From the NCBI GenBank assembly GCA_033119305.1, contig VSWD01000008.1:62068347-62132346 (forward strand): 64,000 nucleotides of DNA. Reading direction: 5' to 3'. The notes under the pieces were generated by a model. The model saw only the letters and a list, made by a program, of their open reading frames with translations. It did not search any database and was not told the origin of the DNA. Positions 239-56,142 of the stretch are shown here, piece after piece. The DNA is from Pinctada imbricata (lineage: Eukaryota). The position numbers and the translations under genes are program-made. The number at the start of each line of letters is the position of its first letter. Position 1 is the stretch's first letter.

Positions 239-299
239 GTGTAATCAAAGATTACGAAGCTCACCTCGTGGCAGCAAAGTTCAATTTAAACATATCTCT

Positions 300-6718: not shown

Positions 6719-6719
6719 G

Positions 6720-12005: not shown

Positions 12006-12157
12006 CTCTATGACATCATCTTTGGATTCAGAACTCTGGACCATATTTTTGTACATGACCGCCTCTACATTGTCGCCGTTGTGTTGTTCCATGGGGTGTC
12101 CCCCGTTACCATGTGTATGGTATGACGGCAGTGCTCTGCTGCTGCTGCTGGAACCTG
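12006..12157 (-). CDS. Penultimate exon of paralogue A (..GSSSSSRALPSYHTHGNGGHPMEQHNGDNVEAVMYKNMVQSSESKDDVIE), ending at a GAG|GTCAGT donor at 12006. The acceptor position is uncertain
   Basis: The open frame joins in phase to the terminal exon (..KDDVIE|ALEAKV..). Parallels ..AKDDTIR|MLNAKI (62525) and ..KDETIK|ILEAKV (21885). Confidence 0.4.
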
Positions 12158-17710: not shown

Positions 17711-18531
17711 GTAATCAAAGATGACAGCGCTTACCTCGAAGGCATCATTGTCCCATGACCAGCATCTATACCTACATTGCACAAAGTATTTCCAGATGCA
17801 TCATCCACATAAGTTTGGTTGATAAAAAATTCAAAGAAGGCTGGAAATGAAGATTCTAATTTTACCATACCTGGCAAATCAAGTGTGAAATATTGGTCAG
17901 ATGCAGCATCTGTACAGTGCATTGCAGTAAGCATCCTCAGATACATCACCAACACAAGTTTTTTTTTATTGATCTAGGATTTAAAATAGGCTGGAAATGG
18001 ACCTGTCCCATTTTACTTAACCTGATTGCTCAAGCATGGAATGTGGACAAGTGCAGCATCTGTACCATGAATTGCATTAAGCATCCTCAGATGCATCATC
18101 AATGCAAATTTGGTTGATGTACTCGACTTATAGTAAGACTGGAATGGACCTGCCCCATTTTACCTAACCTGCTCACTCAAGCATGAAATGTAGGTCAGAT
18201 GCAGCCTCTGTACCACGCAGTGTTATAAGCATCCTCAGATGCATCATCCATGCAAGTTTGGTTGATGTAGGACTTATAGTAAGGCTGGAATGGACCTGTC
18301 AACTTTTACCTACCCTGCTCTCTCAAACATGAAATGTAGGTCAGATGCAGCCTCCGTACCATGCTTTGTTGTAAGCACCCTCAGATACATCATTCATGCA
18401 AGTTTGGTTGATGTAGGACCTATAGTTTGGCGGGAATGGACCTGTCCCGTTTTGCTTAACCTATGTTGCAGATGCCGACGACAGGCGATAGCATAAGCCT
18501 CCCTCTACTTTGCGAGGTGAGCTAAAATTAT
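17711..18531 (+). mobile_element. Family F1 element: 5' gtaatcaaagatgacagcgcttacctcg, ~6 copies of a 124-bp satellite (17760-18470), a short GACGAC microsatellite, a 3' hairpin and gagctaaaattat
   Basis: Termini match the element at 241-1684. The satellite is related to satellite B (aaatgtaggtcagatgcagc...catgcaagtttggttgatgtag). Confidence 0.65.
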
Positions 18532-24193: not shown

Positions 24194-26191
24194 GGGTACC
24201 TGTAAAGTGCGAAACGAAACAAAAACGAAACGAAACGAAACGAAACAAATCGAAACAAATTGAAACGAAACGAAACGAAACGAAACAGATCGAAACGAAA
24301 CAAAACAGATCGAAACGAAACGAAACAGATCGAAACGAAACAAAACAAAACATAAAACTTAAAGAAAATGAGAAAAAGAGGAAAAATCGCCGAAAACGAA
24401 TATTTCAAGACAAGATCTTATTGAAGGGTCAGGGGGTACCACTCTCCTCCTGCCGCCTCCCCCCTCCCCGTGGGGGGAGGGGGTCTTGGGCGGTCAAGAC
24501 AAATGTTTAAACTTTAAAGTGTAAATTGGTGCAATAGTGAAGTTATTTGGGTTATTTCCTTTTTTAAACCTTGAATAAAGCCTGTGTTTGTGAAACACGA
24601 ATGCCCCCGGTGGCATCTTTGTTAGTATAAACGCCATTTTCTGTTAAGTACGTGAAAAGTCAAAGTCAAGGTGACGAGGACAAAACCTTTTGCTAACAAT
24701 GAAATGGTCTTCTCACAAGGAATACACATGTGAAATATGAAAGCCCTATCACTTACTATTCAAAAGTTATGCCCAATGTTAAAGTTTTTGAAAAGTAGGT
24801 CAAAGGTCAAGGTCAGGGGGTTAAAACTTTTGGTATCAATGGAAAGGTCTTGTCACAAGGAATACACATGTGAAATATGAAAGCCCTATCACTTACCATT
24901 CAAAAGTTATGCCCAATGTTAAAGTTTTTGAAAAGTAGGTCAAAGGTCAAGGTCAAGGTCACAAGGTCAAAAATTTTGGTATCAATGGAAAGGTCTTGTC
25001 ACAAGGAATACACATGTGAAATGTGAAAGCCCTAACATTTACCATTCAAAAGTTATGCCCAATGTTAAAGTTTTTAGTTCGGACAAACAGACAGACAGAC
25101 AAACAGACGGACAGGCCAAAAACTATATGCCCCCGAATCTGTGATTCCGAGGGCATAAAAAAGAAATAGACCTGTTTAGATGAAAAACTAAGGTGAGCGG
25201 AGCGAGCCTGAAGTATTTGAAAAATGAATTGAAAATTGTGGCGAGCGAAGCGATCGGGAAAAAATTTTAAGGTATATATAGATGAATTTCGTGGTAATTT
25301 TTAGAATTGAGATTATGTACATGAACGCATAAGAGCAAGATTATTTATATTAAGAGTAATTTTCTAATTTTTTTGGGTTACTGTTACCCTCCCAATCATC
25401 TGTCCCTCCTCTCGCCCCCTTTCCTCTCCTCCCGCCCCCTTTCTCTCCCCTCCCTTTGTCCCTGTCCACCCCCTCATTATTGCCTTCAACCGTTAGTTCT
25501 TGTGGCTGGAGGGTTTTTTAAAGAATCAAAGTTGACGATTAAAACATAATATATACGGTATATAGCACAATTGCATTTTAAAGGAGAGTGATTGGGATGA
25601 ATAACCTCGTCACAGACGGAAAAATATTATTTAGCAGGGAGGAGTCTAGCGCAGAGGAAACGGAACTGTTCCGTTATGTGTATTTGAAAATTTTATCAGA
25701 AAAATGAGAACAATTAAAAACTGGGGGGCAGATTTCGTTTAAAAAGGATAAGATTTTTTCCTGAAATATGCCCCCACCCCGTTTTATGATCTCATTACGG
25801 TGTCATAGCGTGGTTTTCTATCCCCTCCCTTTTATTCCACTTAAATACATGAATGGCATTTGACATTTACTTTTTTTAATTGTCAACTTTGACTCTTTCA
25901 AGAAACCCTCTCTGCACTAGTTACAAATGTAGAACTCTTGGATTAAGGCAATATTACATGCTGCTCTTGTCTTGAAATATTCGTTTTCGGCGATTTTTCC
26001 TCTTTTTCTCATTTTCTTTAAATTTTATGTTTTGTTTCGTTTCGTTTCGATCTGTTTCGTTTCGTTTTGTTTCGTTTCGATCTGTTTCGTTTTGTTTCAA
26101 TTTGTTTCGTTTCGTTTCGATTTGTTTCGTTTCGTTTCGATTTGTTTCGTTTCGTTTCGTTTTTGTTTCGTTTCGCACTTTACAGGGACCC
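24194..26191. mobile_element. Non-autonomous DNA transposon with ~235-bp terminal inverted repeats (GGGTMCCTGTAAAGTGCGAAAC...; each contains a (GAAAC/GTTTC)n array) and a perfect 9-bp TSD, TTCTTTATC. MULE/Merlin-like by TSD length. It carries a nested F3 element
   Basis: TSD at 24185-24193 and 26192-26200. Arm 24194-24425 is the reverse complement of 25965-26191 at ~95% identity. No ORF. Confidence 0.6.
24581..25162 (+). mobile_element. Family F3 element nested inside the long-TIR element
   Basis: 5' cctgtgtttgtgaaacacgaatgcccccggtggcatctttgttagt, 3 units, (ACAGAC)n, 3' atgcccccgaatctgtgattccgagggcat. Confidence 0.65.
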
Positions 26192-26912: not shown

Positions 26913-27844
26913 TACTGGCTTAAAGATAAAAAAAATTTAAAAACTAAAATAAAAAAAAATCACACATCAAGAGATGATATCAAAAATACGAATATTTCCA
27001 ATTACCTAAATACTTACACTAAGACAAGTGGTCTTCTTCAATAAAAAAAAATTGATAAATTATAGTTTTGTACCAATGTAATTCTCACCCTAACTATCTA
27101 AACTTGACATTTAAAGAAAGATGAGGTAAAGCGTAGTATAAACCCCAGGATCACAGATTCAGAAACTAATATTACATTCAGCATTTCACCCAACATGATT
27201 TGGAGGGGGGGGGGGAGGAGGGCTGGCTAACTTGTTTTTAGGATCTTGAATCACTCTTGTGGCAACTATCAAAGGAGAATATTATCTTGACTCTAATTTG
27301 ACAAAGGAGTTATATTTCAGTAGTGTAAGATTTTCACCCTCAGTGGGTGGTGGTATAATTTCAAAGTAATGAGAGGATATATAGTAGGTAGTTGATATAG
27401 AACAATGTAATGGTCTGACAGTTCAATAAAAGGGATAATGAATAATTCTGAAAATTAATCCATTTTTTAGATTCATTTATTTCTCAATAAACCAACAGGC
27501 ATAAAAAAGGGAAATAATTTTGACTGTTGTTTTATAATACTTTTATTGCATGGTCTTGAAGTGTCCACATGAGTTGTCGCGTTTTCTAATTTGTGAAATC
27601 ACCATGAAGTTTTACTTAATATTGTGATGTCTGGCTTGTTTATTGGAAAGTTGGTAGGTAAGTTACAGGAGGAGTCTAAACTAGGACACCAACAAAGTCA
27701 TGAAAGGCCCAGTCAAGGATTTTTTTGTTTTAGTGGTGCTTTTTATGAATCAATCAATTGATATCTAGAAAGTTGAATGCTCAACAGAAAATTTGCTCAC
27801 ATCATATATGACTTTTATAAATAAATTTCACGGCTAAAGTTTAT

Positions 27845-28550
27845 TTTTACTTTTCACATGTAGGTCAAACTGCAAGGTCAAGGTCATGAGGTAAAAGTGT
27901 GGTATTCATAGAAAGGGTGTACAAAAGGAATTTGTTTTAGATTTTACATATTCTATTGATAATAATATCAAAGGGATCGGAAACAAGTTATCCAATTTAG
28001 AAGTATTCTTCTCCCAAAAGGAATACACATGTGAAATATTAAAGCCCTCTCATTTTCCTTTCAGAAGTTAATGCTAAGATAAGATTTTAGATTTTCAAAA
28101 TTAAATCAAACTGCAAGTTCGGGTCACAGGTCAAAACATTGGTAGTCATGGATACGTCTTGGTACAATGAATGCAAATGTGAAATAAAACAAAAATTGAA
28201 AGCCCTATCACTTACAGTTCTAAAGTCATGATCAAGATTAAAGTTCTTTTCAAAAGTAATACAATTTCAAAGTTAAAGAAAGACAACAAGGCCAAAAATA
28301 AGTTACAAAGAATACAAATGTCAAAATAAAATTTTATATCACTTGCCTTTCAAAAATTAAGACAGTCAAACTTCAAGATTAAAGTGAACAGTTTAAAACT
28401 TTTGTACCAAGAGAAAGGTCTTGCCACAAAGAACACTCACTAGAAATCCGAAATCTCTATCACTAATCATTCAAAAGTTATGCTGAAAGTTCAAGTTTTG
28501 GTCACTGATTGGAAGACAGACAGAGGGACAAGTCTCTTTTTGTGACCATG
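27845..28550 (+). repeat. Degenerate AGGTCA-type satellite copies ending in (GACA)n
   Basis: Recognisable ggtcaaggtca / cacatgtgaaata..aagccct.tca motifs, strongly diverged. Confidence 0.4.
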
Positions 28551-29450: not shown

Positions 29451-30819
29451 AATAAGTTGCATTTTATATATTGTACCCTTTATATTTGCGAACTTTATAT
29501 GTTGCATTTAGCTTTTTCAGTATACAAACATCACATAAACAAAATTCATAAAACAAATGAGACAAAAGTTAAGTATTCATATGAGTATAGCATATAAAAA
29601 TAAAGAGATAATATGAACAAGTTTGCTTTTTTTTAATGTACTCAGTCTTCACGAAAACTTAAACTCGCCCAACAGCTTGGGCTACCAGAAATTCTGCTGT
29701 ACTAGTATAATTTGTCTAACAAACTATACAATTTACCAGTAGGATTTGTAATCTGATTAAATCAGGCTGGTTGTTTTTAAAAATATTTTTGTGAAAACTG
29801 TTTAATAGTAAATATCTTACAACAAAAAATCTAGAATAAAGTTAATACATGTATTTTACAAATTATTTGATAGAATTCCCTTGTTGGCTTTAGGATATAT
29901 AAGGTTACACAGCCTGGTTCATGTTGAAATAGAACTAAAACACCCTGTATAATCCTCATATTTATTATGTCCTGCTTTCCTATGCAAAGAAAAGCTACAG
30001 TTTTTTCACTTTCTACCCAAGGTTAAAAAATGATTTCTTCTTGACATGAAAAGATGCAAACTTATTAGTGATTGTTCAAGAATAGTTAAATCAGAAATCA
30101 CACCAAATTATCCAAACAATAAATCTGAGACATAGCCTGTTAAATGGAATGTATATGTGTTAATGGACTCAGAGGGGGCATTAAGTCAAGACCTGAACGG
30201 ATATACTTATCATCAGTTACACCTTACCATCATAAGTGTAGGAACCTGCAAGCATAATTCACATCTTCTTTATCATCAAACTTACAGACTTACTTCATAA
30301 ACTTAGAAGTAAGCAACAAGTAGTTACAGATGGGGATATTCATGCCCTGAAAGTAGCATGCAATCAGACTGTGACTTTGTGAATATAACTGGCGATGTCA
30401 AGAATCAATAATCCCTCAACTAAGGCGTCAAATCAATGTTCTGATTGTGCAACCATTACCCTTACACGCAATCTGCTATTTGTAGTCCCATTTAAGGAAA
30501 GTATGCGTATTAGGAAAAACACGTCCTGCTTAAGATGGATCTGTTTAATCAACTTTCATTGATCAGTTTCAGCATTTGGACAAAGTTTGGATAATACCTA
30601 GATTCTAAATTGTAAATGGCAACCTTAATTCAAATAAAACAAATAAGAAAACGATGTGCACCCAGCTAGTAAGCCTTTTATTCTACATCTATTGGTGGCC
30701 CTTAACAAGACAACATTCATTAATAATGTTACTTCCATGTAGGAATCTATATCCTAAAGGCCAATCTACAAGAAAATAATCATACAAGTAAACAAAATGT
30801 TTTTCATAAAAAAAGATGT

Positions 30820-33800
30820 CTCCCCCCTCCCTCTAAGTTACTTTGACCTTAGGCCAAAATGCAAAATGATGTGAAACCTTTGAGTCATGGGCAACATCAT
30901 ACTAAAACATGAAAGTAATTCATTACATTGTTTGAGGTAAAGCCCAAACATGATTGGCATATATAATTTCATTATAAGCATATTTAAAGAAATTGACTTT
31001 GGTCACATGACCTTGGATATAGGTGATCTGAAATCTACACTCACTGACGAAGATTAAGTACCCGAAACATGCATGTCTGGTCCATGCTGAAAACTTATCT
31101 GTTTTTAAATGATGCTATTGAATTTGAAGACGTTTAGCATTGTATGGATCATGAGCATCAAAAAACTGAATTAGTGATTGGATACACAGTTCAAAATATA
31201 AAGCCTAAACGTTATTAGCATAGACAATTTCAGCCTGGACATGCTTAGCATATACAATTTCATTACCAAAGTAAGAAGCTACCTTAACCATGTGACCTTG
31301 GGACAATGTGATAAGAAACATTCAGTCCTTAGAAATAACATACTAAAATATGAAAACAATTGTAAGAAGGGTTCAGGAGATATAGCCCAGACAATATTAG
31401 TACGTACAATTTCATTAAAAAGAACTAAATGATCTTGACCTTGGGCACATGACCTTGGGTCAAGATGATAAGAAACCCTCCAATCCTGAGCAACAGCATA
31501 CTATAGTATAAGAGTGATCCAGTATACGATTCCACAGATATAGCCCAGACTCAATAGCATTTACAATTTCATTAAAAAATGTAATACTTGACCTTAGTCA
31601 TATGACCTTGGATCAAGAAGGTGTGAAACCTTTGGGTCATCAGCACCATCATACTAAAATATGACGTGATCTGATCACGGTTCAAAAGATTAAGCCTGGA
31701 CATAATACATGTAACAAATACAATTTCATTTAAAATATACTAATTGACCTTGACTTTGGTCACATGACCTTGAGTCAATGTGATGTGAAACCTTTACGTG
31801 ATAAGCAACAACATACTAAAATATGACGGTGATCTGATAAATAGTTCAAAGAGATACAGCCCCAATGGGATAGCATATACAATTTCATTTAAATGTACTT
31901 AGTAACTTTGACCTTAATCAAATGACCATGGGTCCAGGTGAAACCTTTTGGTCATGACTAAATACATTCTTAAACTTGAAAGCAATCCAGTATGCAGTCC
32001 AAGGGATAAAGCCTAAACAAGAATGTATCTACAATTTCATTAAAAATGTAGTAAGTGACCTTGGCCTTGGGTCAAGGTGATGTAAAACCTTCCGGTCATA
32101 AGCAAAAACATACTTAAATATGAAAGTGATCCGGCAAACGGTTCAAGAGATATAGCCCGGACAAGAATGTATGCACAATATCATTAAAAATAGCAATCCA
32201 AGGAATGCTCGTGTCGCCTGCGAAGCGGCTTGATTATTATTCTAGAAAGTGGATCAAAATTATTGGTAACAGTAGAAAAGTTTTGTCAAATGAAATTCAT
32301 TTGAAATATCAGACCTCATAATTACAAATTAAAAGATATGGTCATTCTCAAATTTTCAGAAAATAGTGTCAATCATCTAGGCAAAAGTCACTATGTAAAA
32401 ATTTGTAACGAAAAGGTCTCATCATAAGAAATATCAAAGACCTATCACTTACCAATTAAAAAATATACACAACCTTAATTTCTTAGAAAAGAAGGTCAAA
32501 CAGTTAGGTCAAGGTCAAACATTATGGTATGTGTAGAAATGCATTGTTACGAGGAAAATACATGTGAAATAGCAAAGCCCTATCACCTACCAATCAAAAG
32601 ATATAGCCAATTTGAATTCTCTTGAAAAGTAGGTCAAATATCTAGGTCAAGATCACAAGGTTAAATATTATGGTCTGTGTAGAAAGGTCATGTCACAAGG
32701 AATACACATGTGAAATATCAAAGCCCTATCACTTACATGTACCAATCAAAAGATATATACAATCTTAATACTTTTGAAAAGTGGGTCAAATATGTAGGTC
32801 AAGGTAAATAGGTCAGAAATTATGGTATGTGTAGAAAGGCGTTGTTACAAGGAATAAACATGTAAAATATCAAAGCCCTATCACTTACCATTAAAAAGAT
32901 ATAGTGAATCTTATCTTTTTTTCAAAAGTAGGTCAAATATCTAGGTCAAGGTCACAAGGTCAAAAATTATGGTGTGTGTAGAAAGGTCTTGCCACAAGGA
33001 TTGCATGTGTGAAATATCAAAGTCCTAACCCTTACCAATCAAAAGATATATCAATTCTTAACTTTTTTGAAAAGTAGGTCAAATATGTAGGTCAAGGTCA
33101 CTAGGTCAAAAGTTATGGCATGTGTAGAAAGGTCTTGTCACAAGGAATACACATGTGAAATATCAAAGCCCTATCACTTACCTTTCAAAAGTTATGGGCT
33201 GTGACACCCAAAGTGTGACAGACAGATGGACTGACTGACGGACGGACGGACAACGGACAAAGTGATCCCTAAGTGTCGCTATGCTTCGCAGGAGACACAA
33301 AAATGCACTAAGTGACCTTGACCTTGGTCACATGACCTTGGGTCAAGGTGATGTGAAACCTACGGGTCATAAGCAACAACATGCTAAAATATGAAAGTGA
33401 TCGGGCCAACGTTTCCAGAGATATAGCTTGACAGGAATGTATTCATAATTTCATTAAAAATGCACTAAGTGACCTTGACCTTGGTCACATGACCTTGGGT
33501 CATGGTGATGTGAAACATTTGGGTCATAAGCAACAACATACTAAAATATGAAAGTGATCGGGCGAACGGTTCAAGGGATATGGCACAGACTGGAAAGTAT
33601 GCACAGTTTCATTAAAAATGCACTAAGTGACCTTGACCTTGGTCACATGACCTTGGGTCAAGGTGATGTGAAACCTTCGGGTCATAAGCAACAACATACT
33701 AAAATATGAAAGTGATCCGGCATTCGTTCAAGAGATATAGCCCGGACAGGAATGTATACATAATTTCATTAAAAATGCACTAAGTGACCTTGACCTTGGT

Positions 33801-34150
33801 CACATGACCTTGGGTCAAGGTGATGTGAAACCTTCAGGTCATAAGCAACAACATACTAAAATATGAAAGTGATCCGGCAAATGGTTCAAGAGATATAGCC
33901 CGGACAGGAATGTATGCATAATTTCATTAAAAATGCACGAAGTGACCTTGAACTTGGTCACATGACCTTGGGTCAAGGTGATGTGAAACCTTCGGGTCAT
34001 AAGCAACAACATACTAAAATATGAAAGTGATCGGGCTAACGGTTCAGGCGATATAGCCCGGACACGATGTGTGACAGACGGACAGACAGACAGACAGACG
34101 GACGACGAAGGCAAAACCAATATGTCTCCTCTCTGTTGGGGGGGAGACAT
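30820..34150 (+). repeat. Family F5 array: a ~158-bp unit (gcactaagtgaccttgaccttggtcacatgaccttgggtcaaggtgatgtgaaacc...). There are ~9 diverged copies, then a nested F2 insertion, then 5 near-identical copies. It ends in (GACA/GACGGACA)n plus the hairpin atgtctcctctctgttgggggggagacat
   Basis: Periodicity and the terminal 8-bp-stem hairpin (ATGTCTCC/GGAGACAT) read directly. Confidence 0.75.
32186..33302 (+). mobile_element. Complete family F2 element (~8 x 120-bp units) inserted into the F5 array between aaaaat and gcactaag, with at most a 1-bp duplication
   Basis: F2 5' and 3' termini are present. Flanks are tcattaaaaat | element | tgcactaagtgacc. Uninterrupted F5 units read cattaaaaatgcactaagtgacc. 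Confidence 0.7.
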
Positions 34151-34270
34151 AAATACATGTATATAAACAATAAAATATGAAATATCCAACTGTAACTCTT
34201 CTAAATGTCTCCTTGACAATGTGTATGGAGGAAAACAAATACTTAAGCATAGAAAATATAGGATTCTTAC

Positions 34271-34479
34271 CGACATATTGGTCAGCCTCAGGTTTATCAC
34301 TTTCTGGCCTACCATGTTTCTTTTTTACAGGTGGTGGTTGTCGCTGCCGTTCCCATTCCGCTCTATTCAGTTTGATTCTCAGATATATAAGAAATTTTTC
34401 TATGAGACCAGGTTTACAGGCGACAATACCTTCGATCAAATCATTGTCAACCTCAAAATTGAATCTTTTGAAAACTTTC
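34271..34479 (-). CDS. SPEF1: SPEF1-like gene B exon 3 (end of the CH/DUF1042 domain): (R)KVFKRFNFEVDNDLIEGIVACKPGLIEKFLIYLRIKLNRAEWERQRQPPPVKKKHGRPESDKPEADQYV. Acceptor ttctgtatttcag; best donor G|GTAAGA at 34270 (alternative donors at 34329 and 34313)
   Basis: Aligns with human SPEF1 KVLKRLNFSVPDDVMRKIAQCAPGVVELVLIPLRQRLEERQRRRK (memory). Phase matches exon 2 (AG+G=R). Confidence 0.65.
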
Positions 34480-34605
34480 CTGAAATACAGAAAATTTTCT
34501 CAGTTAACTAAGCGATATTGCTCACAGAAAGGTAATGAACTAAATACTAGTATTGTGAAAGAAGAAAACACTATGGTGTGGTTGTGAAACACTGCATAAT
34601 AAAGC

Positions 34606-36100
34606 CAGTGTTTGTGAAACACAAATGCCCCCGGTGGCATCTTTGTTAGTATGAACACTAATTTCTGTTAAGTACATGTATGTGAGGTCACTGGGTTAAA
34701 AGGTCAAAGGTCAAGGTCACGAGGTCAAAAATTTTGGTATCAATATAAAGGTCTTGTCACAAGGAATACACATGTGAAATATGAAAGCCCTATCACTTCC
34801 CATTCAAAAGTTATGCCCAATGTTAAAGTTTTTGAAAAGTAGGTCAAAGTCCAAGGTCAAGGTCACAAGGTCAAAAATTTCGGTTTCCATGGAAAGGTCT
34901 TGTCACAAGGAATACACATGTGAAATATCAAAGCCCTATCACTTTCCATTCAAAAGTTATGGTCAAGGTTAAAGTTTTTAATAAGTAGGTCAAAGGTCAA
35001 GGTCAAGGTCACGAGGTCAAAAATTTTGGTATCAATGGAAAGGACTTGTCACAAGGAATACACATGTGAAATATGAAAGCCCTATCACTTCCCATCCAAA
35101 AGTTATGTCCAATGTTAAAGTTTTTGAAAAGTAGGTCAAAGGTCAAGGTCAAGGTCACGAAGTGAAAAATTTTGGTATCAATGGAAAGGTCTTGTCACAA
35201 GGAATACACATGTGAAATATGAAAGCCCTATCACTTCCCATCCAAAAGTTATGCCCAATGTTAAAGTTTTTGAAAAGTAGGTCAAAGGTCAAGGTCAAGG
35301 TCACGAGGTCAAAAATTTTGGTATCAATGGAAAGGTCTTGTCACAAGGAATACACATGTGAAATATGAAAGCCCTATCACTTCCCATTCAAAAGTTATGT
35401 CCAATGTTAAAGTTTTTGAAAAAGTAGGTCAAAGGTCAAGGTCACGAGGTCAAAAATTTTGGTATCAATGGAAAGGTCTTGTCACAAGGAATACACATGT
35501 GAAATATGAAAGCCCTATCACTTCCCATTCAAAAGTTATGCCCAATGTTAAAGTTTCTGAAAAGTAGGTCAAAGGTCAAGGTCAAGGTCACGAGGTCAAA
35601 AATTTTGGTATCAATGGAAAGGTCTTGTCACAAGGAATACACATGTGAAATATGAAAGCCCTATCATTTCCCATTCAAAAGTTATGCCCAATGTTAAAGT
35701 TTTTGAAAAGTAGGTCAAAGGTCAAGGTCAAGGTCACGAGGTCAAAAATTTTGAAATCAATGGAAAGGTCTTATCACAAGGAATACACATGTGAAATATG
35801 AAAGCCCTATCACTTCCCATCCAAAAAATATGCCCAATGTTAAAGTTTTTGAAAAGTAGGTCAAAGGTCAAGGTCAAGGTCACGAGGTCAAAAATTTTGG
35901 TATCAATGGAAAGGTCTTGTCACAAGGAATACCCATGTGAAATATGAAAGCCCTATCACTTCCCATTCAAAAGTTATGTCCAATGTTAAAGTTTTTCGGA
36001 CAAACAGACAGACAAACAGACAAACAGATAAACAGACAAACAGACGGACAGGCCAAAAACTATATGCCCCCGAATCTTTGATTCCGGGGGCATAAAAAAA
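34606..36100 (+). mobile_element. Family F3 element: ~10 x 142-bp units, a long (ACAGAC)n and the 3' hairpin atgcccccgaatctttgattccgggggcat
   Basis: Termini and units read directly. A partial duplicate of the 5' terminus (gttgtgaaacac) lies 25 bp upstream. Confidence 0.7.
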
Positions 36101-36944
36101 CCCCTTGTTTGTGTACAGATTTAAAAGACATATTGCAAGTAAGCATCAGACATACAGATTGACTGACAAACTGACAAACTTACTTATTGACTGACCAGAG
36201 TGTTCACACTAGGCAATTACAGGGTAGTGGTTAAGTAGTACATTTAGGCCCACATCATGATGATGTGGACCTTCAGCATTGTTCAAATGATTGATGTTTG
36301 TAATTTTAGTCTTTGCTCATTGGGCAGATCAAAGTACCAATAGTACTTATATGCTCTGGAGGTCAGGATTCTACCTATTCCTCCCATTCCCAGGTTCAGA
36401 TTCCAACTTTGTGAAACCCAGATGCACAGCTACAAGTCACACCCTAGCATACTGTATGATACCATAAAACGTTTTGTTACCCAACCTTTAAGGAAGAAAA
36501 GCCTACACAACATTTACGAACTAAACCCATATTTTCCCCAACTCAGGGGCCATACCTACACTTTGATACCCTGGTGCACCACTCACTAGAGTCACATCCT
36601 ACCACATCATCTTAAGTTTTGAAATATATCTGTTCAGAATTTTGAGTTGGTCAATTCTGTAACTGTGACTTTTGACCTAACCTAATATTGATAAGTAATA
36701 AATCCTAAACCACTAAAGACAGTAATTCTGGGTTGCAAAGCACTATTAAGTATTAGTTGATCAACTTGATGTTTACTTTATTAATTGAAGGTATTGTTAA
36801 AAGTAATCTATACATGTGAAATAGCAAGGCCCCACCCTTTATAGTTTAAGACACATTGTCAATTTCATTGGGGGGGGGGGGGTTAAAACTCAAGGTCAAG
36901 GTCAAAGTCCCAAATAAAGCCTAGGCAATGCATAGCATAGCATC

Positions 36945-38645
36945 CCCTCGCACTGCCCCCTCTAGGCTGTATAAAAAGATTTTGACCTTTTCCAATCTGT
37001 GACCTTGACCTTTGGCCTTTTAAAAATCAATAGGGTTCTTCCTCTTTTTAAAAGCTATCATTGTATGAAGTTTGGTTAAGGTCCAATCAAAACTGCGTCC
37101 TCTAGGCTGTATACAAGGATTTTGATCTTTTCCAATCTGTGACCTTGACCTTTGACCTAAAAAAGTCAATAGGGTACTTCCTCTTATAAACTATCAAGAG
37201 TATGAAGTTTGGTTAAGACCCAATCAAACCTGTACCCTCTAGGCTGTATACAGGGATTTTGACCTTTTCCAACCTGTGACCTTTGATCTTTGACCTAAAA
37301 AAATCAATAGGGTACTTCCTCTTATAAACTATCAAGTGTATGAAGTTTGGTTAAGACCCAATCAAACCTGCACCCTCTAGGCTGTATACAGAGATTTTGA
37401 CCTTTTCCAACCTGTGACCTTTGATCTTTGAGCTTGAAAATCAATAAGTTTCTTCCTCTTATAAACTATCAAGAGTATGAAGTTTGGTTAAGACCCAATC
37501 AAACCTGCACCCTCTAGGCTGTATACAGGGATTTTGACCTTTTCCAACCTGTGACCTTTGATCTTTGACCTAAAAAAATCAATAGGGTACTTCCTCTTAT
37601 AAACTATCAAGAGTATGAAGTTTGGTTAAGACCCAATCAAACCTGCACCCTCTAGGCTGTATACAGAGATTTTGACCTTTTCCAACCTGTGACCTTTGAT
37701 CTTTGAGCTTGAAATCAATAAGTTTCTTCCTCTTATCATAAACTATCAGTGTATGAAGTTTGGTTAAGGCCCAATCAAAACTGCACCCTCTAGACTGTAT
37801 CCAAGGATTTTGACCTTTTCCAATCTGTGACCATGACCTTTGACCTAAAAAAATCAATAGGGTACTTCCTCTTATAAACTATCAAGAGTATGAAGTTTGG
37901 TTAAGACCCAATCAAACCTGCACCCTCTAGGCTGTATACAGGGATTTTGACCTTTTCCAACCTGTGACCTTTGATCTTTGACCTAAAAAAATCAATAGGG
38001 TACTTCCTCTTATAAACTATCAAGAGTATGAAGTTTGGTTAAGACCCAATCAAACCTGCACCCTCTAGGCTGTATACAGGGATTTTGACCTTTTCCAACC
38101 TGTGACCTTTGATCTTTGACCTAAAAAAATCAATAGGGTACTTCCTCTTATAGAACTATCAAGTGTATGAAGTTTGGTTAAGACCCAATCAAACCTGCAC
38201 CCTCTAGGCTGTATACAGGGATTTTGACCTTTTCCAACATGTGACCTTTGATCTTTGACCTTGAAAATCAATAGGGTTCTTCCTCTTGTCATAAGCTATT
38301 AGTGTATGAAGTTTGGTTAAGGCCCAATCAAAACTGCACCCTCTAGACTGTATCCAAGGATTTTGACCTTTTCCAATCTGTGACCTTGACCTTTGACCTA
38401 AAAAAGTCAATAGGGTACTTCCTCTTATAAACTATCAAGAGTATGAAGTTTGGTTAAGACCCAATCAAACCTGCACCCTCTAGGCTGTATACAGGGATTT
38501 TGACCTTTTCCAATCTGTGACCTTGACCTTTGACCTACGACCTTGAAAATCAGTAGGGTTCTTCTTCTTGTCATAAGCTATCAGTGTATGAATTTTGGTT
38601 AAGATCCAATCAAAACTGCACCCTCTAGGCTGTATACAAGTATTT
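36945..38645 (-). repeat. Family F4 array: a ~120-bp unit, ~14 copies (ctctaggctgtatacagggattttgaccttttccaacctgtgacctttgatctttgacc...). It is the reverse-strand counterpart of the AGGTCA satellites, ending next to an imperfect palindrome atccccctgcaactatgttgcaaggggata
   Basis: Units contain tgaccttgacctttgacc, the reverse complement of ggtcaaaggtcaaggtca. Confidence 0.75.
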
Positions 38646-38699
38646 TGTGACACACACACTCACTTGCACACGAACGAGGGCGTTACTATATCCCCCTGC

Positions 38700-39100
38700 A
38701 ACTATGTTGCAAGGGGATAATGAAAGGCCATGTCACACAGAATCTTCATGTTTTTGGTTCAAGAGATATAGTCAAGCTTAAAGCTGTTGAAAAGTATGCC
38801 ATACTTCAAGGTCAAGACCACTAGGTCAAAGCCAAGGTTATAAGGAAACTACAAGTGAAATATGTAAGCTCTACCCATTACGATTCAAGAGAAATAGCCA
38901 AAGTTAATGTTTCTGAGGTTAAACTTCAAGGTCAAGGTCATTATGTAAAAAATAAAGGTATCAAATGAAAGGTCTTGTCAAAAGGAATTTACATGTGAAA
39001 TATGAAAGCCCTACCCCCTACTATTCAAGAGATTTTCCAAAGGTTGATTTTTTTTTTAAAGTTTGTCAAACTTCAAGTTAAAGGTAACAATTCAAAGGTC
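38700..39100 (+). repeat. Degenerate AGGTCA-type satellite copies
   Basis: Diverged ggtcaaggtca...catgtgaaatatgaaagccct units. Confidence 0.4.
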
Positions 39101-43317: not shown

Positions 43318-44190
43318 ACAAAAATAGCAATTCAAGGAATGCTTGTGTCACCTGCGAAGTGGCAATTTCTTCTTTTTTTTTTTTTAAAGTAGGTCAAATA
43401 TCTATTTCAAGGTCATTAGGTAAAAAATTATGGCATGTGTAGAAAGGTCTTGTCACAAAGCATACACATGTGAAATATCAAAGCCTTATCATTTACCAAT
43501 CTAAAGACATAGCTAATCTTAGTTTTTCAAGAAGTAAGCCAAATATCTAGGTCAAGGTCACTAGGTCAAACATTATGGTAAGTGTAGAAAGACCTTGTTA
43601 CAAGGCATACACATGTGAAATATCAAGGCCTTATCCCTTACCATTCAAAAGATAAAACCAATCTTAGCTTTTTTTAAAAGTAGGTCAAATATCTAGGTCA
43701 AGGTCACTAAGTCCAAAAAAAAATTGTAGGTGTAGAAAGGTCTTGTCACAAGGAATACACATGTGAAATATCAAAGCCCTATTCCTTACCATTCAAAAGA
43801 TAAAACCAATCTTAGCTTTTTTGAAAAGTAGGTCAAATATCTAGGTCAAGGTCACTAATTCCAAAAAAAAAAAAAAAATGGTAGGTGTAGAAAGGTCTTG
43901 TCACAAGGAATACACATGTGAAATATCAAAGCCCTATCACTTACCAATTAAAAGATATACAAGTAGTCAATCTTAGCTTTTTTGAAAAGTAGGTCAAGGT
44001 CACTAGGTCAAAAATGTTGGTTTGTGTAGAAATGTCTTGTCACAAGGAATAAGCATGTGAAATATCAAAGCCCTATCACTTACCAATCTAAAGTTATGGG
44101 GTGTGACACCCAAAGTGTGACAACAGACGGACAACGGACAATGAGATCCCTAAGTGTTGCTATGATTTGCAGGCTACACAAAAAGACAGC
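43318..44190 (+). mobile_element. Family F2 element (~6 units; poly-A slippage inside the units)
   Basis: 5' aaaaatagcaattcaaggaatgcttgtgtcacctgcgaagtggc; 3' aaagttatggggtgtgacacccaaagtgtgacaacagacggacaa...gcaggctacacaaaaa. Confidence 0.65.
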
Positions 44191-44372: not shown

Positions 44373-46584
44373 CTACATCAAAAACAAGCAACATGCAGCA
44401 AATCGTTAAAAAGCAAAACCAAGGGACAAGATGCATGCATGTCAGTGTTAAACAAACCTGGGAATCAATATACAGTTCATTAAAATGTACATAAACATTT
44501 ATATTATTACCGAACAAATTACAGATACATTTTAATATTGGGAATGTTAGGGAGGATGAACAGATCAAGAGGTCTGGTCCCTGAACCTCCTTTGGGGTTT
44601 CTGATTATTTTTTCTTTAAATGTCAGAGATACAAATTTACATCATGGTCAAATAAGAAATATGCCTTACAGAAGCAAAATGCTACGTTGCAGTAGCCAGT
44701 AGATTCACGACTTTGACCTATGACCCAATTCTCAGCCCAGGGTTTCTTGGGATTGCACTATACCTCTGTCAATGCTACTTTATAGAAATACAGCAGACAA
44801 TTCTAAGCTTTTTACATATATGTAATTAAAAATTATCATATGAAACTATACTCATATACCCTGTACAATCAAAGTTAAATCAAACTTTTGTCTAGCAAAC
44901 AACTGCTCATTTTTTTTAAGGCAATCAACAGCAATTCTCTGTAAGAACCAAAGAATTTCAAGACATATTGGCACGGCATGTCATGGATTTTTGAAATTTT
45001 TGGTTTGGAAGTTCAATATGAAGCACTAGTATGTAAATCAACCCCAGTTTTTTCAAAAAGGTTGCCGTTGCCATGGTAACCATGTCTGAAGTTTCAAAAA
45101 TAGGGAAAATCTATAGGACGAGGCATATTTGTAGGCTTCGTTACCATGGAAACAGGTACTTTTTTAATCTGAAATTGCTTTGATTATTTTCTTTTAATCC
45201 TTATTATTATGCATATTTGTAAAGTTTTTTACATTCATCTCGGATGCCTTTTGTATACAAGATGAAAAATTGGGCCTAAAAAGGGTATCAAAAGGCTCTG
45301 TTTTGGGCACTTAAATACCCTTTTTTGCATGTTTTTACTGTTTTACAAGGTTGAAAATTTCATAAAAGCACCAATTTTTGAAGTCCAAATTCTAATTATC
45401 TAATTAGTATCATCTCTGAACTTTACATTAATATGAAAAATTAATTGGGCTAATTTGTCCTTTTATATGCAAAGCAGCATCAAATTTAGTTGCTATGGCA
45501 ACAACCGGCTGAAAGGTTTCCATACGATAGATTTAAACACAACCTCTATCAAACTATCTACACATGATATTGGAACAGAAGTTCATGTATACATCTATCA
45601 GAGGGGTTTTAATATAAAAATGACCTTGAAATTATTTCAAGGTCACCCGCTGAATTTCCAAGGTCGTTAAACTTTAAGTGACCAGATTTGACGAAAAATT
45701 CTGATTTTTCATAAAATTAAGGTGCCAATATTTTAGAAACCTTGAAATATTGAACTTAACAGTTATTTGCCATAAAATGATAAACGTATCACTTATTTCT
45801 TAGAACTATTGATAATGTTTCTTCACATCTTCGAATATCTAAATTCTTGGTGAGTATTTTGATAAAAAAGGGACGAAATCTGTATTTTCTTGTTTTTTTG
45901 ACGAAAAAAAATTTTCCCATTAAATTTCTCCAGTTCAATGAATTCTAAGATTTTTCTTTCTTATATTCATTTGCTTTCATAAAATATATGACCTATGAAA
46001 ATATTCAAATAAAAGATAATTAAAATCGGTAACAAAAACTTTAAAAAATCAATATTTTATGCAAAATTTGAGTCTCAAAGTATAAATGACCTTGAATATC
46101 AAGCCAATGACCTTGAACATTTTAATTGTTCTTATGTAAAAGATTTAAGTCATATCTATACATGCATACATTTTGACAATCTTATGTAATTCTAAAGAGG
46201 AATAAAATCAATTTCAAAGATAATATGAAACAAGCAAAAAGGTCTAATGTTGCCATGGCAACGGTCTTTGGCGACAGAATTTAGGTAAAACTCTTAAAAT
46301 ACCCACTCCAATTTTTTGTTCATTTTATTTGTCAATAAACATCTATTTCCTTTGATGAAAATCATTGGTCTCCTATTGGTGCCTTATGTGATATATAAGA
46401 TTGAAAATGGTCAAAAACACACTAAATTGGCCCTTATTTTCACCTCTTTTTTTCGCTTCATTTTGACTTATTTTGACTTAATACAATAAGCTTCCTGTAA
46501 TAAATATCACATTACTAAGTGTACTAAGTAAGAGTGGAAGTAAGGAAGAATAGATTATAAAATGTTATGATCGCTGAGCGATAT

Positions 46585-47600
46585 AGTCCCCTACCGGCGG
46601 CATATATTTATGTCCTGCAACTCTGGCTATGAATTACTCTTCAATTAAACATATACATGTATGAGTTTAAATTAAACTTACTGTCTGTGCAGCTCAGTTC
46701 TGAGGTTTTATCTGCTTTATCGATTCGAAAAAGAGGTCAAGTGTGACGAAAGTTGAACTTGTTCTGTAACTATCCAAGACTAAGCTGAGTATCAAATTTC
46801 ACCTGAATATCTCTGTTTGTTGCAGAAAAAAGTCTGGAAAACTGACAAAAACTGAATTTTCCAAGTCATAAAGGGGCATAACTCCTCGAAAAATAGGTCA
46901 AACGTGACATAAGTCGAACTTGCTCTGTAACTATCCTAGACCAAGCTGTGTATCAAATTTCATCTGAATATCTTCATCCGTTGCAGAAAAAAAGTACAGA
47001 AAACTGACAAAAACTTAATTTTCCAAGTTATAGAGGGGCATAACTCCTTGTAAAATAGATCAAGCCTGACAAAATTCAAACTTGCTCTGTAAGTATCCAA
47101 GACCAAGCTGTGTATCAAATTTCATCTGAATATCTCCATTCGTTGCAGGAAAAAGTCCGGAAAACAGACAAAAAGTGAATTTTCCAAGTCATCAAGGGGC
47201 ATAACTCCTCGAAAAATGGGTCAAACGTGATGAAGGTTAAACTTGCTCTGTAACTATCCAAGACAAAGCTGTGTATCAAATTTCATCTGAATATTTCCAT
47301 TCGTTGCAAAAAAAAGTCCGGAAAACTGACAAAAACTGGATTTTCCAAGTCATCAAGGGGCATAACTCCTCGAAAAATGGGTCAAGCGTGACGAAAGTCG
47401 AACTTGCTCTGTAACTATCCAAGACCAAGCTGTGTATCAAATTTCATCTGAATATCTCTATCCATTGCAGAAAAAAGTCCGGAAAACTGATATTCGGACA
47501 GACGGACAGACGGAGGGACAGACGGACGGACAGACAGACAGACGGACAGACAGACCGAGAGGAAACTAAGAGTCCCCTTCGGCGTTGCCGGTAGGGGACT
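46585..47600 (+). mobile_element. Family F6 element: 14-bp terminal inverted repeats AGTCCCCTACCGGC, an internal ~160-bp satellite x6 (46720-47490), (GACAGACGGACA)n, and the 3' hairpin agtccccttcggcgttgccggtaggggact
   Basis: 5' tagtcccctaccggcggcat (46587) against the reverse complement of 3' ...ccggtaggggacta (47586). Satellite units read directly. Confidence 0.6.
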
Positions 47601-49860
47601 AATAAAGATGAACAAGCTGTTACAGTGGTATCCATGGCAATGAAGTCTCCGGAGATGGCTTATTTCATAGTCCCAACAGTGCTATAAATAGAATGACCTC
47701 GTTACCATGGCAACAAGAGGTCACATTGGCCAAAAAGTGTCATTTTCATGGTCAGTACTTAATATATACCCATTATACCGAAATTCATCAAAATCCATGT
47801 CATGCCGTGCCGATCGATTTTGGTCCTTACAGAGAATTGCTATTAAATATTTGATAATACTGTAAACTGTTTTTTATTTGCGGCGTCTTATGTCCACGAA
47901 CACCAGTGAGGTGACTGCTTCGCGGTGTTTTATTTTCGCGACATCGTATGTACCTTACTTACTACATGTATATACATTTTAGGATATTTTCGCACCGTTT
48001 TATTGTCAGGAATTCAAGGATCTCGTGAATATTGCGAAAATTAAACGCGAATAAAAGACGGTTTATAGTATCACCAAATTTCGACACCATGGTATCATGT
48101 ATGCAGCTGCTGGTGTTACGTGTATAGTACCATTTCAGAATGACTCAACAAAATCCATGTGATATTCTGTTTTGCAGTAGATACGAAATGTTCTAAAATG
48201 TCATAGGATTAACTAAATTAAAAAAATTAAAGCCTAACCCATTCGTTTACATTTATGGTTTCTGTCACATTAGCTAAACAGACCCACTGTCATAAGAAAT
48301 TCTGACATGCATCACGATTAACAATTGTTGTCAAAGTGAACAATATGACTGTAATCTGCATTGAATTTTATCTCTTCTTGGAATACCTAACCTTTATCCT
48401 ATAGGAGTGTTCCTAAAAAAGGAGGGATTTAGTTACTGGTACTTCGTAGGAGTTTGACAACTGATTTCATTGGTTAATTGCAATGTGACGTCACAAACTG
48501 CCCCCTATTCAGATACACAACAAGTCTTAGAAGGGGCAGTTTGTAACATTGCAGTGCAATTTAACTACAAATTATCCTATGGTTACTGTATACATCATGT
48601 ACATTCATTCAAATGACAGCAGTCTGAAATTAAAATGGGAATATCCTGTAAATATTTTCATTTTTCTGTTTAGTGGATAGGGTGCATGAGTTGATGAAAA
48701 TTTTCAGTTTCATGTACGTTTTGAACAACCTACCGTAAGTTCAACCTACCAAGACATTTAAATTAATAGAAAAATTTAAAGTTAAGACAGCAGAATACAT
48801 CTTCAAAATATGGTGCTCTAGATTTATTGAATATACTTGCTTTTGGTATTCTAGAAGAGGGCTGTTCCATTACATGCATCTGCCATTGACTATTGCCTGT
48901 CACTAGATTGAGAAATTTGAGGGGCTGCGATAGTCAATGGCAACATTATGATTTAAAAATACAGTCCTATTACAGAATCTCAAAACTTGTAAAAAAGGAT
49001 TAATGTCCTCATGGCTCATATTGGAAACTGTAAAATCATGATTTTGTCCAAAGTTAATATAATTACATATACATGTATGTGGCTAGCCTTGTCAATTCTC
49101 GTTTAGTTGCAACTTTTTCTGGCATACATTTTCTATAGATAAAAATAACATACCAGATGGGGACATTTAACATGGAGCCTTAAGAAAACTTTGCAACATT
49201 AGAGGAAAAATTAACATTGAAAATGCTTCATCTTAACATATTTTTCTTATTTAACTTGATTGCGTGCTTCTTATAGTCCTATCACTAGAATGATCAGTTA
49301 TGACAAGACAAGATCTATTGGTCAGTATACTGGTGTTAGAACTGTTTCCAGACAGTAATAGTTTCTGGACAATCGTCCCTTTCAAGTATTTTGAAGAAAT
49401 TTTCTTCCAAAATTTTATGACAATTTTGTACTTCATTTTTAATTTAAATGGAGAATTCAAATTCAAATCATGAATATCATAACAAAATTTTGCATCTAAG
49501 TAACTTTACCACACAACCTTTTAACCCCTCTCTGTCCTGTTTGATATTGCACATCAGGAGAAATTGCAGAGAACCATCCATTTCCACTGAACCCTGATTT
49601 TTTTAAAACTATTATTTAAAGGTGCCTTTCAATTTGGGAAAAATCAGTGACATAATCAAGAAAATTAGGAATAGTTTAAACAGTTTATTATCAGTCCTTT
49701 GATCATGGTCACGTAAAATTATTTCAGGTTGAATCAAACTGTACTCTCAATTTTTGGGAATTTAGGCACATGTAACTTTTTTTGGAAAAATAGTAGTTAA
49801 TTCAGCATTGAGAAAGGGCCGAAATTCGGCCCCAAATTACAAGTATAATAAAATAAAAAA

Positions 49861-49914
49861 TGTGTTTGTGAAAAACAAATGCCCCCGTCGGCATCTATGT
49901 CAAATTGTATAATG

Positions 49915-49946
<32 letters not shown>

Positions 49947-56109: not shown

Positions 56110-56142
<33 letters not shown>

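Follow-up and report, generated by a model that had tools for sequence, protein, structure and literature searches.

Location and Anatomy of the Nested Element

The repeats were analyzed across a stretch of 64,000 nucleotides, hereafter the window. An F2-family element splits one unit of the F5 tandem array precisely at a unit junction, and both elements are located in an intron, with a CH_2/SPEF1-like exon ~117 bp upstream. Helentrons are the endonuclease-encoding branch of the rolling-circle Helitron-like transposons. F2, F5 and most of the tandem arrays in the window were assigned to Helentron-derived HINEs, and the boundaries of the elements were corrected. The features of the nested element and its host are as follows.

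32191-33303, minus strand: F2 copy B, read as a full-length non-autonomous Helentron (HINE), 1,113 bp, canonical 5'-TTTTTGTGTCTCC...GGATTGCTA-3'
32192-32209, minus strand: F2 3'-terminal palindrome, imperfect, canonical AGCATTCC TT GGATTGCT; in copies A, B and C
32211-32226, minus strand: F2 3' subTIR, plus-strand GTGTCGCCTGCGAAGC; 16 nt, 94% complementary to 33283-33298
32254-33195, minus strand: F2 central tandem array, ~6.5 units of ~146 bp (TRF period 146)
33217-33259, minus strand: F2 microsatellite, plus-strand (GACA/GGAC/GACT)n, canonical GTCY-type
33273-33279, minus strand: F2 short IR GCGACAC, 3 nt from the 5' subTIR, the start of which it complements
33283-33298, minus strand: F2 5' subTIR, canonical GTGTCTCCTGCGAAGC, from the inverted-repeat comparison; in copies A, B and C
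33299-33303, minus strand: F2 T5 run (plus-strand A5) marking the 5' boundary on the canonical strand, kept in 3/3 F2 copies
30816-34153, minus strand: F5, second HINE in the same orientation as F2, ~2.2 kb without F2, 3' end uncertain
30867-32190, minus strand: F5 RF-side array, its units diverged except for the interrupted unit 32047-32190
32186-32190, minus strand: F5 host oligo-A run (canonical oligo-T), the target tract bordering the 3' end of F2
33304-34063, minus strand: F5 LF-side array, 4.8 × 157-158 bp units with a mutual identity of 89-97.5%
34073-34104: F5 microsatellite
34122-34129: F5 IR

The modules of F2 were arranged from 5' to 3' as T5, a 16-nt 5' subTIR, the IR, a (GTCC/GTCA)n microsatellite, ~6.5 × 146 bp of tandem repeat, the 3' subTIR and the palindrome, with oligo-T beyond. 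The canonical termini were TTTTTGTGTCGCCTGCGAAGC...GCTTCGCAGGCGACAC-palindrome, and the sequence conserved across copies A, B and C began with AAAAATAGCAAT and finished with ACACAAAAA. The subTIRs, a pair found in all three copies, were separated from the 5' and 3' ends by 5 and 20 nt, respectively. In HINEs, subTIRs measure 11-16 nt; the 5' one is a few nt away from the terminus, and the 3' one lies inward of a terminal palindrome. The microsatellite-plus-tandem-array arrangement, in a fixed orientation, was common to all of the elements examined. In F5, the subTIR pair comprised ATGTCTCCCCCC at 30816-30827 and GGGGGGAGACAT at 34139-34150. No convincing 3' palindrome was found for F5, nor any palindrome to the left of 30816; the 3' boundary of this element is insecure because it has no recognizable palindrome and is represented by only one copy. 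No autonomous Helentron (Rep/Hel ORF) was found within the window.

The stability of the predicted hairpins was also explored. The F2 palindrome, which occupied the expected position in all three copies, contained an internal mismatch, and its fold of -5.1 kcal/mol (z = -0.3) did not exceed shuffles in stability. The F2 5' subTIR/IR hairpin was weak (z = -0.65), and the F2 folds overall had z = -0.3 to -0.7 versus shuffles. Hairpin stability was dropped as support for F2, since the folds did not surpass those of shuffled sequence. The 5' subTIR/IR hairpin had z = -3.9 in F5 and z = -4.5 in the 146-bp sister family, whose palindrome was clear (z = -2.2).

Junctions of the Insertion

Excision of F2 copy B in silico restored ...ATATCATTAAAAATGCACTAAGTGACC... 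at the host site. The restored site was identical to three intact junctions (33461, 33619 and 33776) over CATTAAAAATGCACTAAGTGACC, the junction at 33934 differed by 1 base, and no F5 bases were lost at the insertion. An earlier note, which had placed F2 exactly at an F5 unit junction by comparison with four uninterrupted copies, was right about the position. Every intact F5 unit junction read CATTAAAAATGCAC with one A5 run, which was the only A/T run of at least 5 within the unit.

The inserted length, measured from one AAAAAT copy to the other, was 1,113 bp rather than the 1117 bp given previously. The interval proposed at that time (32186-33302) took in the host A5 from its first A onward and stopped one base before the end of the right A5; its boundaries were off by several bases, an outcome that the note itself had named as speaking against its reading. 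The best placement of F2 copy B was 32191-33303 with the minus strand canonical, one of seven equivalent registers, and the exact ends can shift by up to 5-6 nt inside the run.

The hexamer AAAAAT was the same at both junctions of copy B and single at the intact F5 unit junctions. The claim that at most one T was duplicated did not hold, in that all six bases were identical at the two junctions and AAAAA flanked the ends of all three F2 copies. An empty allele would be predicted to read CATTAAAAATGCACTAAG with a single A5, and the filled site had gained exactly five T's relative to the paralogous empty sites. By itself, the nested site is compatible with a duplication of up to 5-6 bp, and a TSD call from this single site is ambiguous because the shared 5-6 bp lie inside an oligo-A/T run. 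The locus is a clean paralogous empty-site example, and one filled/empty comparison inside an oligo-T tract is insufficient for the TSD question in the Helentron/HINE class.

Oligo-T Context of F2 and Its Sister Family

Two further F2 copies were located in the window.

2386-3075, minus strand: F2 copy A, chimeric, the 5' end of another HINE family joined to an F2 repeat unit
43325-44184, minus strand: F2 copy C, older, with subTIRs matching at only 11/16 positions

The foreign part of copy A consisted of a microsatellite, AGCTCGTCGG...CCCGGCGAGCT and A5; it ended at 2785 and abutted the F2 unit at AAAAA/TTAT. The F2 sample comprised three old copies, which were ~70-80% identical to each other, and A5 (canonical T5) was present on both sides of 3/3 of them. 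The oligo-A on the left of the copies was A10, A5 and A5, and AAAAA precedes only 0.8% of the window positions (0.008 per site). The AAAAAT on both sides of the nested copy, together with the A5 on both sides of all F2 copies, would also fit a duplication of 5 bp (AAAAA) if the target were strictly AAAAA. At the right junctions of copies A and C, the T of AAAAAT was not shared, and the base 5' of the run in these copies was C, not A.

In the sister family, the five two-ended copies carried 5, 6, 7, 5 and 2+5 A's on the element side and 4, 2, 3, 6 and 6 on the flank side. These end runs were unequal, which speaks against a fixed-length TSD. All of the F2 and sister-family copies were in an oligo-T context, and their runs fit T's carried by the element and an oligo-T target without a fixed-length TSD. 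Judged from the sister family, the T5 run at the F2 boundary is most likely element-borne.

Comparison with Known Elements

Helentron and HINE elements insert within TT or oligo-T (PMC4067079, PMC7492417). The closest layout was that of Cg_HINE of Crassostrea gigas (Vojvoda Zeljko et al. 2020, PMC7492417), catalogued in Repbase under Helitron-N*_CGi, which lacks a TSD, prefers oligo-T and inserts into other TEs (PMC7492417). Cg_HINE and F2 have the same module order, namely a left flank (LF) with the 5' subTIR, the IR and a GTCY/GTCC-type microsatellite, a satellite-like array of ~150-170 bp units, and a right flank (RF) with the 3' subTIR and the palindrome (imperfect in F2), a likeness that refers to the published layout description and not to a sequence match. 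Cg_HINE and the window elements also have in common the preference for oligo-T/TT, the lack of a TSD (probable for the window elements), and insertion into other TEs and gene introns, and the Cg_HINE type with two consecutive arrays occurs in the window at 250-1685. Cg_HINEs were reported in both orientations (PMC7492417), whereas the window elements are all co-oriented.

The DINE-1/HINE elements of Drosophila, Culex and mites (Thomas et al. 2014, PMC4067079; Yang & Barbash 2008, PMC2374699) combine subTIRs with an IR at the 5' side, a microsatellite, repeats in the center and a stem-loop at the 3' side, a layout comparable to that of F2, whose palindrome is weak. They insert at TT or poly-T, and the 2-5 T's at their boundary are part of the element and differ in number. 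Their empty sites present the same ambiguity between a TSD and element-borne T's as F2. However, F2 has no sequence relationship to DINE-1/HINE and lacks the DINE-1 'core' block, and its palindrome is 1-2 nt from the terminus versus 8-35 nt in mite HINEs. The elements pearl (C. virginica, Anadara), DTC84 (Donax trunculus) and MgE (Mytilus) (PMC3879986) resemble F2 in their flanks with terminal or subterminal inverted repeats and up to ~5 core repeats of ~160 bp beside a tetranucleotide microsatellite. They have A's at both ends ('putative TSD AA') and repeat variants in a fixed order. The papers on these elements classed them as MITEs and took AA to be their TSD, whereas F2 has five A's and the evidence favors element-borne T's. 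More generally, AA/TT was called a TSD for pearl, DTC84 and DINE-1 by earlier authors (PMC3879986, PMC2374699), with the same ambiguity.

Mechanism and Alternative Explanations

F2 copy B is very probably a HINE, i.e., a Helentron derivative, which was put by rolling-circle transposition, without a TSD, into the oligo-T at a unit junction of the older, co-oriented HINE F5. The rolling-circle reading is preferred because of the full HINE anatomy, the oligo-T at every copy, and the variable and unequal A-runs of the sister family. The earlier note had also proposed rolling-circle transposition, and this is upheld in the form of a Helentron by the HINE anatomy and the oligo-T context; its argument from a missing TSD at an A-T dinucleotide fails. 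From what is published on Helentrons and Helitrons, an autonomous Helentron would provide in trans the Rep/helicase(-endonuclease) that nicks the donor at its T-rich boundary. A single-stranded copy may then be moved and joined to a nick in the oligo-T of the target. This would leave no target-site duplication, and the five extra T's would arrive with the element.

Mobilization of F2 as a MITE by a cut-and-paste transposase of the DDE type, with a short TSD of 5 bp (AAAAA) or 2 bp (AA/TT), would account for AAAAAT being found at both junctions and once in the empty site, as well as for the A5 on both sides of 3/3 F2 copies, and the earlier TSD calls for pearl, DTC84 and DINE-1 are in its favor. 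DDE elements require terminal repeats at both ends. The inverted repeats of F2, however, are asymmetric, one lying 5 nt from its end and the other 20 nt inside, behind the palindrome. Moreover, the same TSD in three independent insertions would demand a target of AAAAA only, and the unequal run lengths of the sister family are incompatible with a TSD of fixed length. The TSD reading has also been re-examined and rejected for this class of elements (PMC4067079). A DDE origin is very unlikely.

Insertion at a host A/T dinucleotide is the hallmark of canonical Helitrons, which also have 5'-TC...CTRR-3' ends and a hairpin ~10 nt from the 3' end and are devoid of inverted repeats. If all five T's are given to the element, the junction becomes GTGCA^TTTTT, an A^T site, and F2 could be a canonical (Helitron1-type) Helitron between host A and T. 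This explanation is likewise very unlikely. F2 has no 5'-TC...CTRR-3' in either direction; its ends are TTTTTGTG...TTGCTA, or TAGCAAT...CACAAAAA on the other strand. The subTIRs, IR and microsatellite are features of Helentrons/HINEs rather than of Helitron1, and C, not A, stands 5' of the run in copies A and C. Least credible is a plus-strand, SINE-like retroposon with a short A-tail, placed by target-primed reverse transcription at TT/AAAA with an A-rich duplication. The plus strand of F2 does end in A5, the target catt^AAAAAT is similar to an L1-type endonuclease site, six bases are present in duplicate, and a non-LTR reverse-transcriptase ORF is present at 13063-14058. A SINE is expected to have a pol III promoter or a head derived from tRNA, 5S or 7SL, together with an A-rich tail and TSDs that vary. 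However, tRNA and Rfam scans of 30000-36500 gave no match, and F2 has no tRNA-, 5S- or 7SL-like head. The supposed tail is a constant A5 across the F2 copies, the subTIRs, IR, microsatellite and palindrome are arranged as in HINEs, and the T of AAAAAT is not common to the right junctions of copies A and C.

As a Helentron event, the insertion of one HINE into the oligo-T of another is ordinary behavior that is already known from bivalve-like genomes, where HINEs are known as a principal origin of dispersed satellite-like repeats. The significance of the nested site beyond annotation is small.

Divergence along the Arrays

The upstream F5 units had identities of 61-77% among themselves and of 65-83% to the downstream units, whereas the interrupted unit (32047-32190) was 85-92% identical to the downstream units. 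Therefore, the divergence step was located one unit upstream of the insertion and not at the insertion, and the stronger divergence described for the upstream copies was real only in part. The downstream side, previously reported as five near-identical copies with 3% divergence or less, comprised 4.8 units that diverged by 2.5-11%.

A similar gradient was found inside F2. In the unit matrix of copy B, the first unit had 66-72% identity and the LF-proximal units 79-86%, so that the most diverged repeats were near the 3' (RF) end. The RF-proximal unit of copy A best matched the RF-proximal unit of copy B (74%, versus 70% or less for the others). This diverged unit was common to the copies and was therefore inherited rather than gained after insertion. 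The suggestion of a one-sided homogenization linked to the insertion is not sustained, as the interrupted unit falls in the homogeneous group and F2 has the same gradient. The stronger divergence on the RF side of F5 is the inherited polarity of an ordered array, with the younger units beside the microsatellite, and not an effect of the insertion. The fixed order of the core-repeat variants in DTC84 parallels this polarity.

Relatives Elsewhere and Orientation of the Elements

The CH_2-like exon beside F5 had a single match, at 63% identity, in a collection of 5.8 billion proteins. The match was on a contig of a different species (L001), and the protein search with this exon gave no allele of the nested locus. 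Only one exon was recovered in the comparison with L001. One F2-like 5' end was present at 5598-5650 of that contig (...GCGACACAA|TTAC); it had two A's only, which fits a variable number of T's, and was too diverged to count. A metagenome scan with the F2 3'-end motif GCAATYCAAGGWATGCTYGTGTC gave 0 matches. The commonest repeat 20-mer gave four contigs, none with F2 termini, and only two of these (L002 and L004) carried related 146-bp arrays, ~80% identical to the sister family.

The strict co-orientation of the HINEs is the only aspect that is perhaps worth a genome-wide look. The HINE loci in the window had the same orientation in ~19/19 cases, the nested F2 and F5 included, and 271/271 off-diagonal HSPs of the self-BLAST were plus/plus. 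The canonical HINE strand was the sense strand of the only recognizable exon, and the six HINE fragments around the homologous exon of L001, a distant relative, kept the same relative orientation. The availability of oligo-T was ruled out as the cause, since A-runs and T-runs of at least 5 outside the elements were about equally frequent (196 versus 204). IS608 is a bacterial HUH transposon with single-strand target choice. A comparable choice, by which Helentron integration itself would depend on the strand of transcription or replication instead of being orientation-neutral and followed by selection, seems improbable here; co-orientation resulting from selection is the more mundane alternative. 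Poly(A)-signal-like hexamers (A[AT]TAAA) in the elements numbered 34 on the non-canonical strand versus 2 on the canonical strand.

Insertion of F2 into the F5 Array

F2, a repeat family of the HINE type (Helentron-associated interspersed element), was inserted precisely into the F5 tandem-repeat array, as the earlier note had claimed. Excision of the material between both AAAAAT copies yielded GCACAATATCATTAAAAATGCACTAAGTGACCTTGACC, and the restored site was identical over CATTAAAAATGCACTAAGTGACC to the intact F5 junctions at 33461, 33619, and 33776, with a 1-base difference from the junction at 33934. Hence, the insertion was real and exact. The insert measured 1,113 bp rather than 1,117 bp; the start given earlier, 32186, coincides with the point where the host A5 run opens, and the end placed at 33302 fell within the right-hand A5 run. 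Moreover, six bases (AAAAAT) were identical at both junctions, whereas a single duplicated T at most had been reported. Seven breakpoint registers fitted the site equally well. The insertion lay exactly at the F5 unit junction, and the orientation of F2 was also fixed, because A5 was the sole A/T run of at least 5 in the unit. In the best parse, the element spans 32191-33303 and entered the T5 tract of an F5 unit without duplication.

F5 array and F2 copies
~30867 to 34063, F5 array
2386-3075, minus strand (canonical), F2 copy A
32191-33303, minus strand (canonical), F2 copy B, nested in F5
43325-44184, minus strand (canonical), F2 copy C

Structure and Classification of F2 and F5

The three F2 copies in the window lay on one strand and were mutually only ~70-80% identical. 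The sequence conserved among them ran from AAAAA-TAGCAAT to ACAC-AAAAA, outside which the flanks were unrelated.

Copy B, read on the minus strand
5' part: T5, subterminal inverted repeat (subTIR) GTGTCTCCTGCGAAGC, ATA, short inverted repeat (IR) GCGACAC, short spacer
Middle: (GTCC/GTCA)n microsatellite, then ~6.5 units of 146 bp
3' part: subTIR complement GCTTCGCAGGCGACAC, G, palindrome AGCATTCC-TT-GGATTGCT, A; then the host T5 run

The 16-nt subTIR pair of copy B was 94% complementary. This layout matched, module for module, that of the Pacific oyster Cg_HINEs, in which the left flank (LF) consists of a 5' subTIR, an IR, and a GTCY/GTCC microsatellite and the right flank (RF) of a 3' subTIR and then a palindrome (PMC7492417), and was the same as that of DINE-1/HINE (PMC4067079). 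The F2 hairpins did not exceed shuffled sequence in stability, consistent with copies that are old and have decayed.

F5 features
34073-34104, microsatellite
34122-34129, IR ATGTCTCC (plus-strand reading)
34139-34150, GGGGGGAGACAT then AAA (plus-strand end)
30816-30827, ATGTCTCCCCCC, complement of GGGGGGAGACAT, immediately preceded by AAAAAAAG; the first recognisable F5 unit comes shortly afterwards

The paired ends, the microsatellite, and the IR indicated that F5, ~2.2 kb without F2, was a second HINE in the orientation of F2. Its 5' subTIR/IR hairpin was strong (z = -3.9). A fold test found no palindrome after the 3' subTIR, and F5 was represented by one copy, so the 3' end was insecure. 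F2 and F5 thus meet the structural definition of HINEs.

Other classes were considered for F2. A canonical Helitron was rejected by the lack of TC/CTRR ends and the presence of subTIRs. A DDE-MITE failed its test: one inverted repeat was 5 nt from its end and the other 20 nt inside, behind the palindrome, an asymmetry ill-suited to a DDE transposase. A SINE failed likewise, as tRNA and Rfam scans returned no tRNA-like or Rfam feature. The rolling-circle reading of the earlier note was broadly right on the superfamily, but its argument relied on an incorrectly stated junction and on the wrong hallmark.

The transposition of Helitrons and Helentrons involves an HUH Rep/helicase and a single-stranded intermediate. 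The insertion precision, the anatomy, and the target context were demonstrated directly, and we inferred the remaining mechanism from this established biology and the hypothesis of PMC4067079. A Rep/helicase(-endonuclease) acting in trans would introduce a nick into the T tract that bounds the element, and one strand would be transferred and ligated into a nick of the target oligo-T. Because the strand would be joined within this nick, the number of boundary Ts could vary and no target-site duplication (TSD) would be produced. An ORF and domain search found no autonomous partner within the window.

Target-Site Duplication

The F2-in-F5 site by itself does not settle whether a TSD was formed. 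The right ends of copies A, B, and C had exactly A5, followed by G, T, and G, and the left sides had A10, A5, and A5. AAAAA precedes just 0.8% of positions; therefore, either the target preference was strong or the run was part of the element. Both ends were visible in five copies of a sister family (146-bp units): on the element side, ...GGGGCAT was followed by 5, 6, 7, 5, and 2+5 As, and the opposite flank had 4, 2, 3, 6, and 6 As. Runs of such unequal length cannot be reconciled with a duplication of fixed length and suggest that the element brings along the A/T-run of its canonical 5' end.

Copy A was chimeric: an F2-type 3' end and two diverged units were followed by a (GACAAC)n microsatellite, then by a 5' end from a distinct HINE family (AGCTCGTCGG..CCCGGCGAGCT-AAAAA, ending at 2785), to which the 5' end at 1640-1680 is related. 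This foreign end abutted an F2 repeat unit (2785/2786) and met it at GGTCAAAAA/TTATGG, the AAAAA/TTAT site of the unit. A second HINE-in-HINE insertion, then recombination between homologous repeat units, is its likely history, and this second nested junction supports the no-duplication parse of F2 in F5.

TT or poly-T is the insertion target of Helentrons and HINEs, whose boundaries carry a string of 2-5 Ts (PMC4067079). According to Yang and Barbash, identical data give a TT TSD or no TSD depending on the 5' end placement (PMC2374699), and this boundary feature is also what was named an "AA TSD" in pearl and DTC84 (PMC3879986). Cg_HINEs prefer oligo-T, insert without TSD, and enter other TEs (PMC7492417); nested HINE insertion of this sort is an already described phenomenon.

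Divergence of the Repeat Units

The F5 units upstream of F2 were more diverged, as previously noted (61-77% identity among themselves; 65-83% to downstream units). The downstream units were 89-97.5% identical to one another, a wider range than the divergence of at most 3% proposed earlier. The interrupted unit had a 14-bp deletion and was 85-92% identical to the downstream units; hence, the step lay at 31894-32046 / 32047-32190, one unit upstream of F2 and not at the insertion. The F2 array had the same polarity (RF-proximal unit, 66-72% to the rest; LF-proximal units, 79-86%). The RF-proximal unit of copy A matched that of copy B best (74% vs at most 70% for others), indicating that the diverged unit was older than these insertions. 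This polarity parallels DTC84, in which core-repeat variants are in fixed order (PMC3879986). The best reading of the pattern is that the array was inherited with its units in order, the younger ones adjoining the microsatellite, and it is not one-sided homogenisation with the F2 insertion as its limit. Some duplication after insertion is likely (units 33619 and 33776, 97.5% identical).

Gene Setting and Orientation of the HINEs

The window was AT-rich (GC ~0.34), eukaryotic in character, and crowded with arrays of 124-161-bp units. On the plus strand, a (GGAC/GACA)n microsatellite and a short tail with a terminal A-run came after most of these arrays.

Coding features
~34271-34480, minus strand, CH_2/SPEF1-like exon (RKVFKRFNFEVDNDLIEGIVACKPGLIEKF...; Pfam PF06294, E = 1.7e-4, below the gathering score)
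13063-14058, plus strand, non-LTR reverse-transcriptase ORF (RVT_1, E = 4.6e-11)

The CH_2/SPEF1-like exon, the sole clear exon recognised, was 59-63% identical to an exon of an ENA metagenome contig from a different species, its only relative in the protein collection (63%), in which the species of the window is therefore not represented. HINEs flanked it on both sides. The canonical 5' end of F5 lay ~117 bp downstream of its splice donor, and the F5 and F2 pair was therefore intronic and in sense orientation; another HINE started ~120 bp upstream of the acceptor.

HINE loci in the window
250-1685, 2386-3075, 4427-4730, 5100-5780, 6131-6718, 17879-18462
24574-25162, 27841-28500, 30816-34153, 32191-33303, 34598-36100, 36870-38725
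38740-39100, 43325-44184, 46560-47600, 49850-50409, 55627-56322

The ~19 HINE loci, from several unrelated families, all had one orientation, with their canonical strand the sense strand of the exon. In a self-BLAST of the window, all off-diagonal HSPs (271/271) were plus/plus and none was plus/minus. The metagenome contig, from a distant relative, carried six HINE fragments (896-12639) around the homologous exon in the same relative orientation. Outside the elements, oligo-A and oligo-T runs were balanced (196 vs 204). In the elements themselves, A[AT]TAAA hexamers numbered 34 on the non-canonical and 2 on the canonical strand. The co-orientation may plausibly stem from selection against poly(A) signals on the sense strand, and a strand-specific integration mechanism could also be responsible.

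The units of the 146-bp arrays (34699-35996 and others) were built on AGGTCA half-site direct repeats (AGGTCAAAGGTCAAGGTCAAGGTCA), and in the F5 units at 33304-34063 this motif was inverted and palindromic (TGACCTTGACCTTGGTCACATGACCTTGGGTCA). We take these motifs to resemble nuclear-receptor response elements, and their dispersal near exons by HINEs might have regulatory consequences.

The HINE at 250-1685 had two consecutive different arrays (124-bp units, 320-843; 157-bp units, 814-1593), then a (GGAC/GCGGAC)n microsatellite, and resembled the two-array oyster elements Cg_HINE_10_13 and Cg_HINE_11_12. A long, nearly perfect inverted repeat at 130-235 (tagacaaaaaccaatgcacaaac ... gtttgtgcatcggtttttgtcta), adjoining its 3' end, could represent an independent foldback element or MITE. 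The (CGAAA)n and (GTTTC)n microsatellites at 24210-24351 and 26029-26175, mutual reverse complements ~1.7 kb apart, lay on either side of the HINE at 24574-25162; this arrangement suggests a larger element with the two repeats as its inverted termini. The ORF at 13063-14058 was what remains of a non-LTR retrotransposon, and it did not share the canonical strand of the HINEs but lay on the other one.
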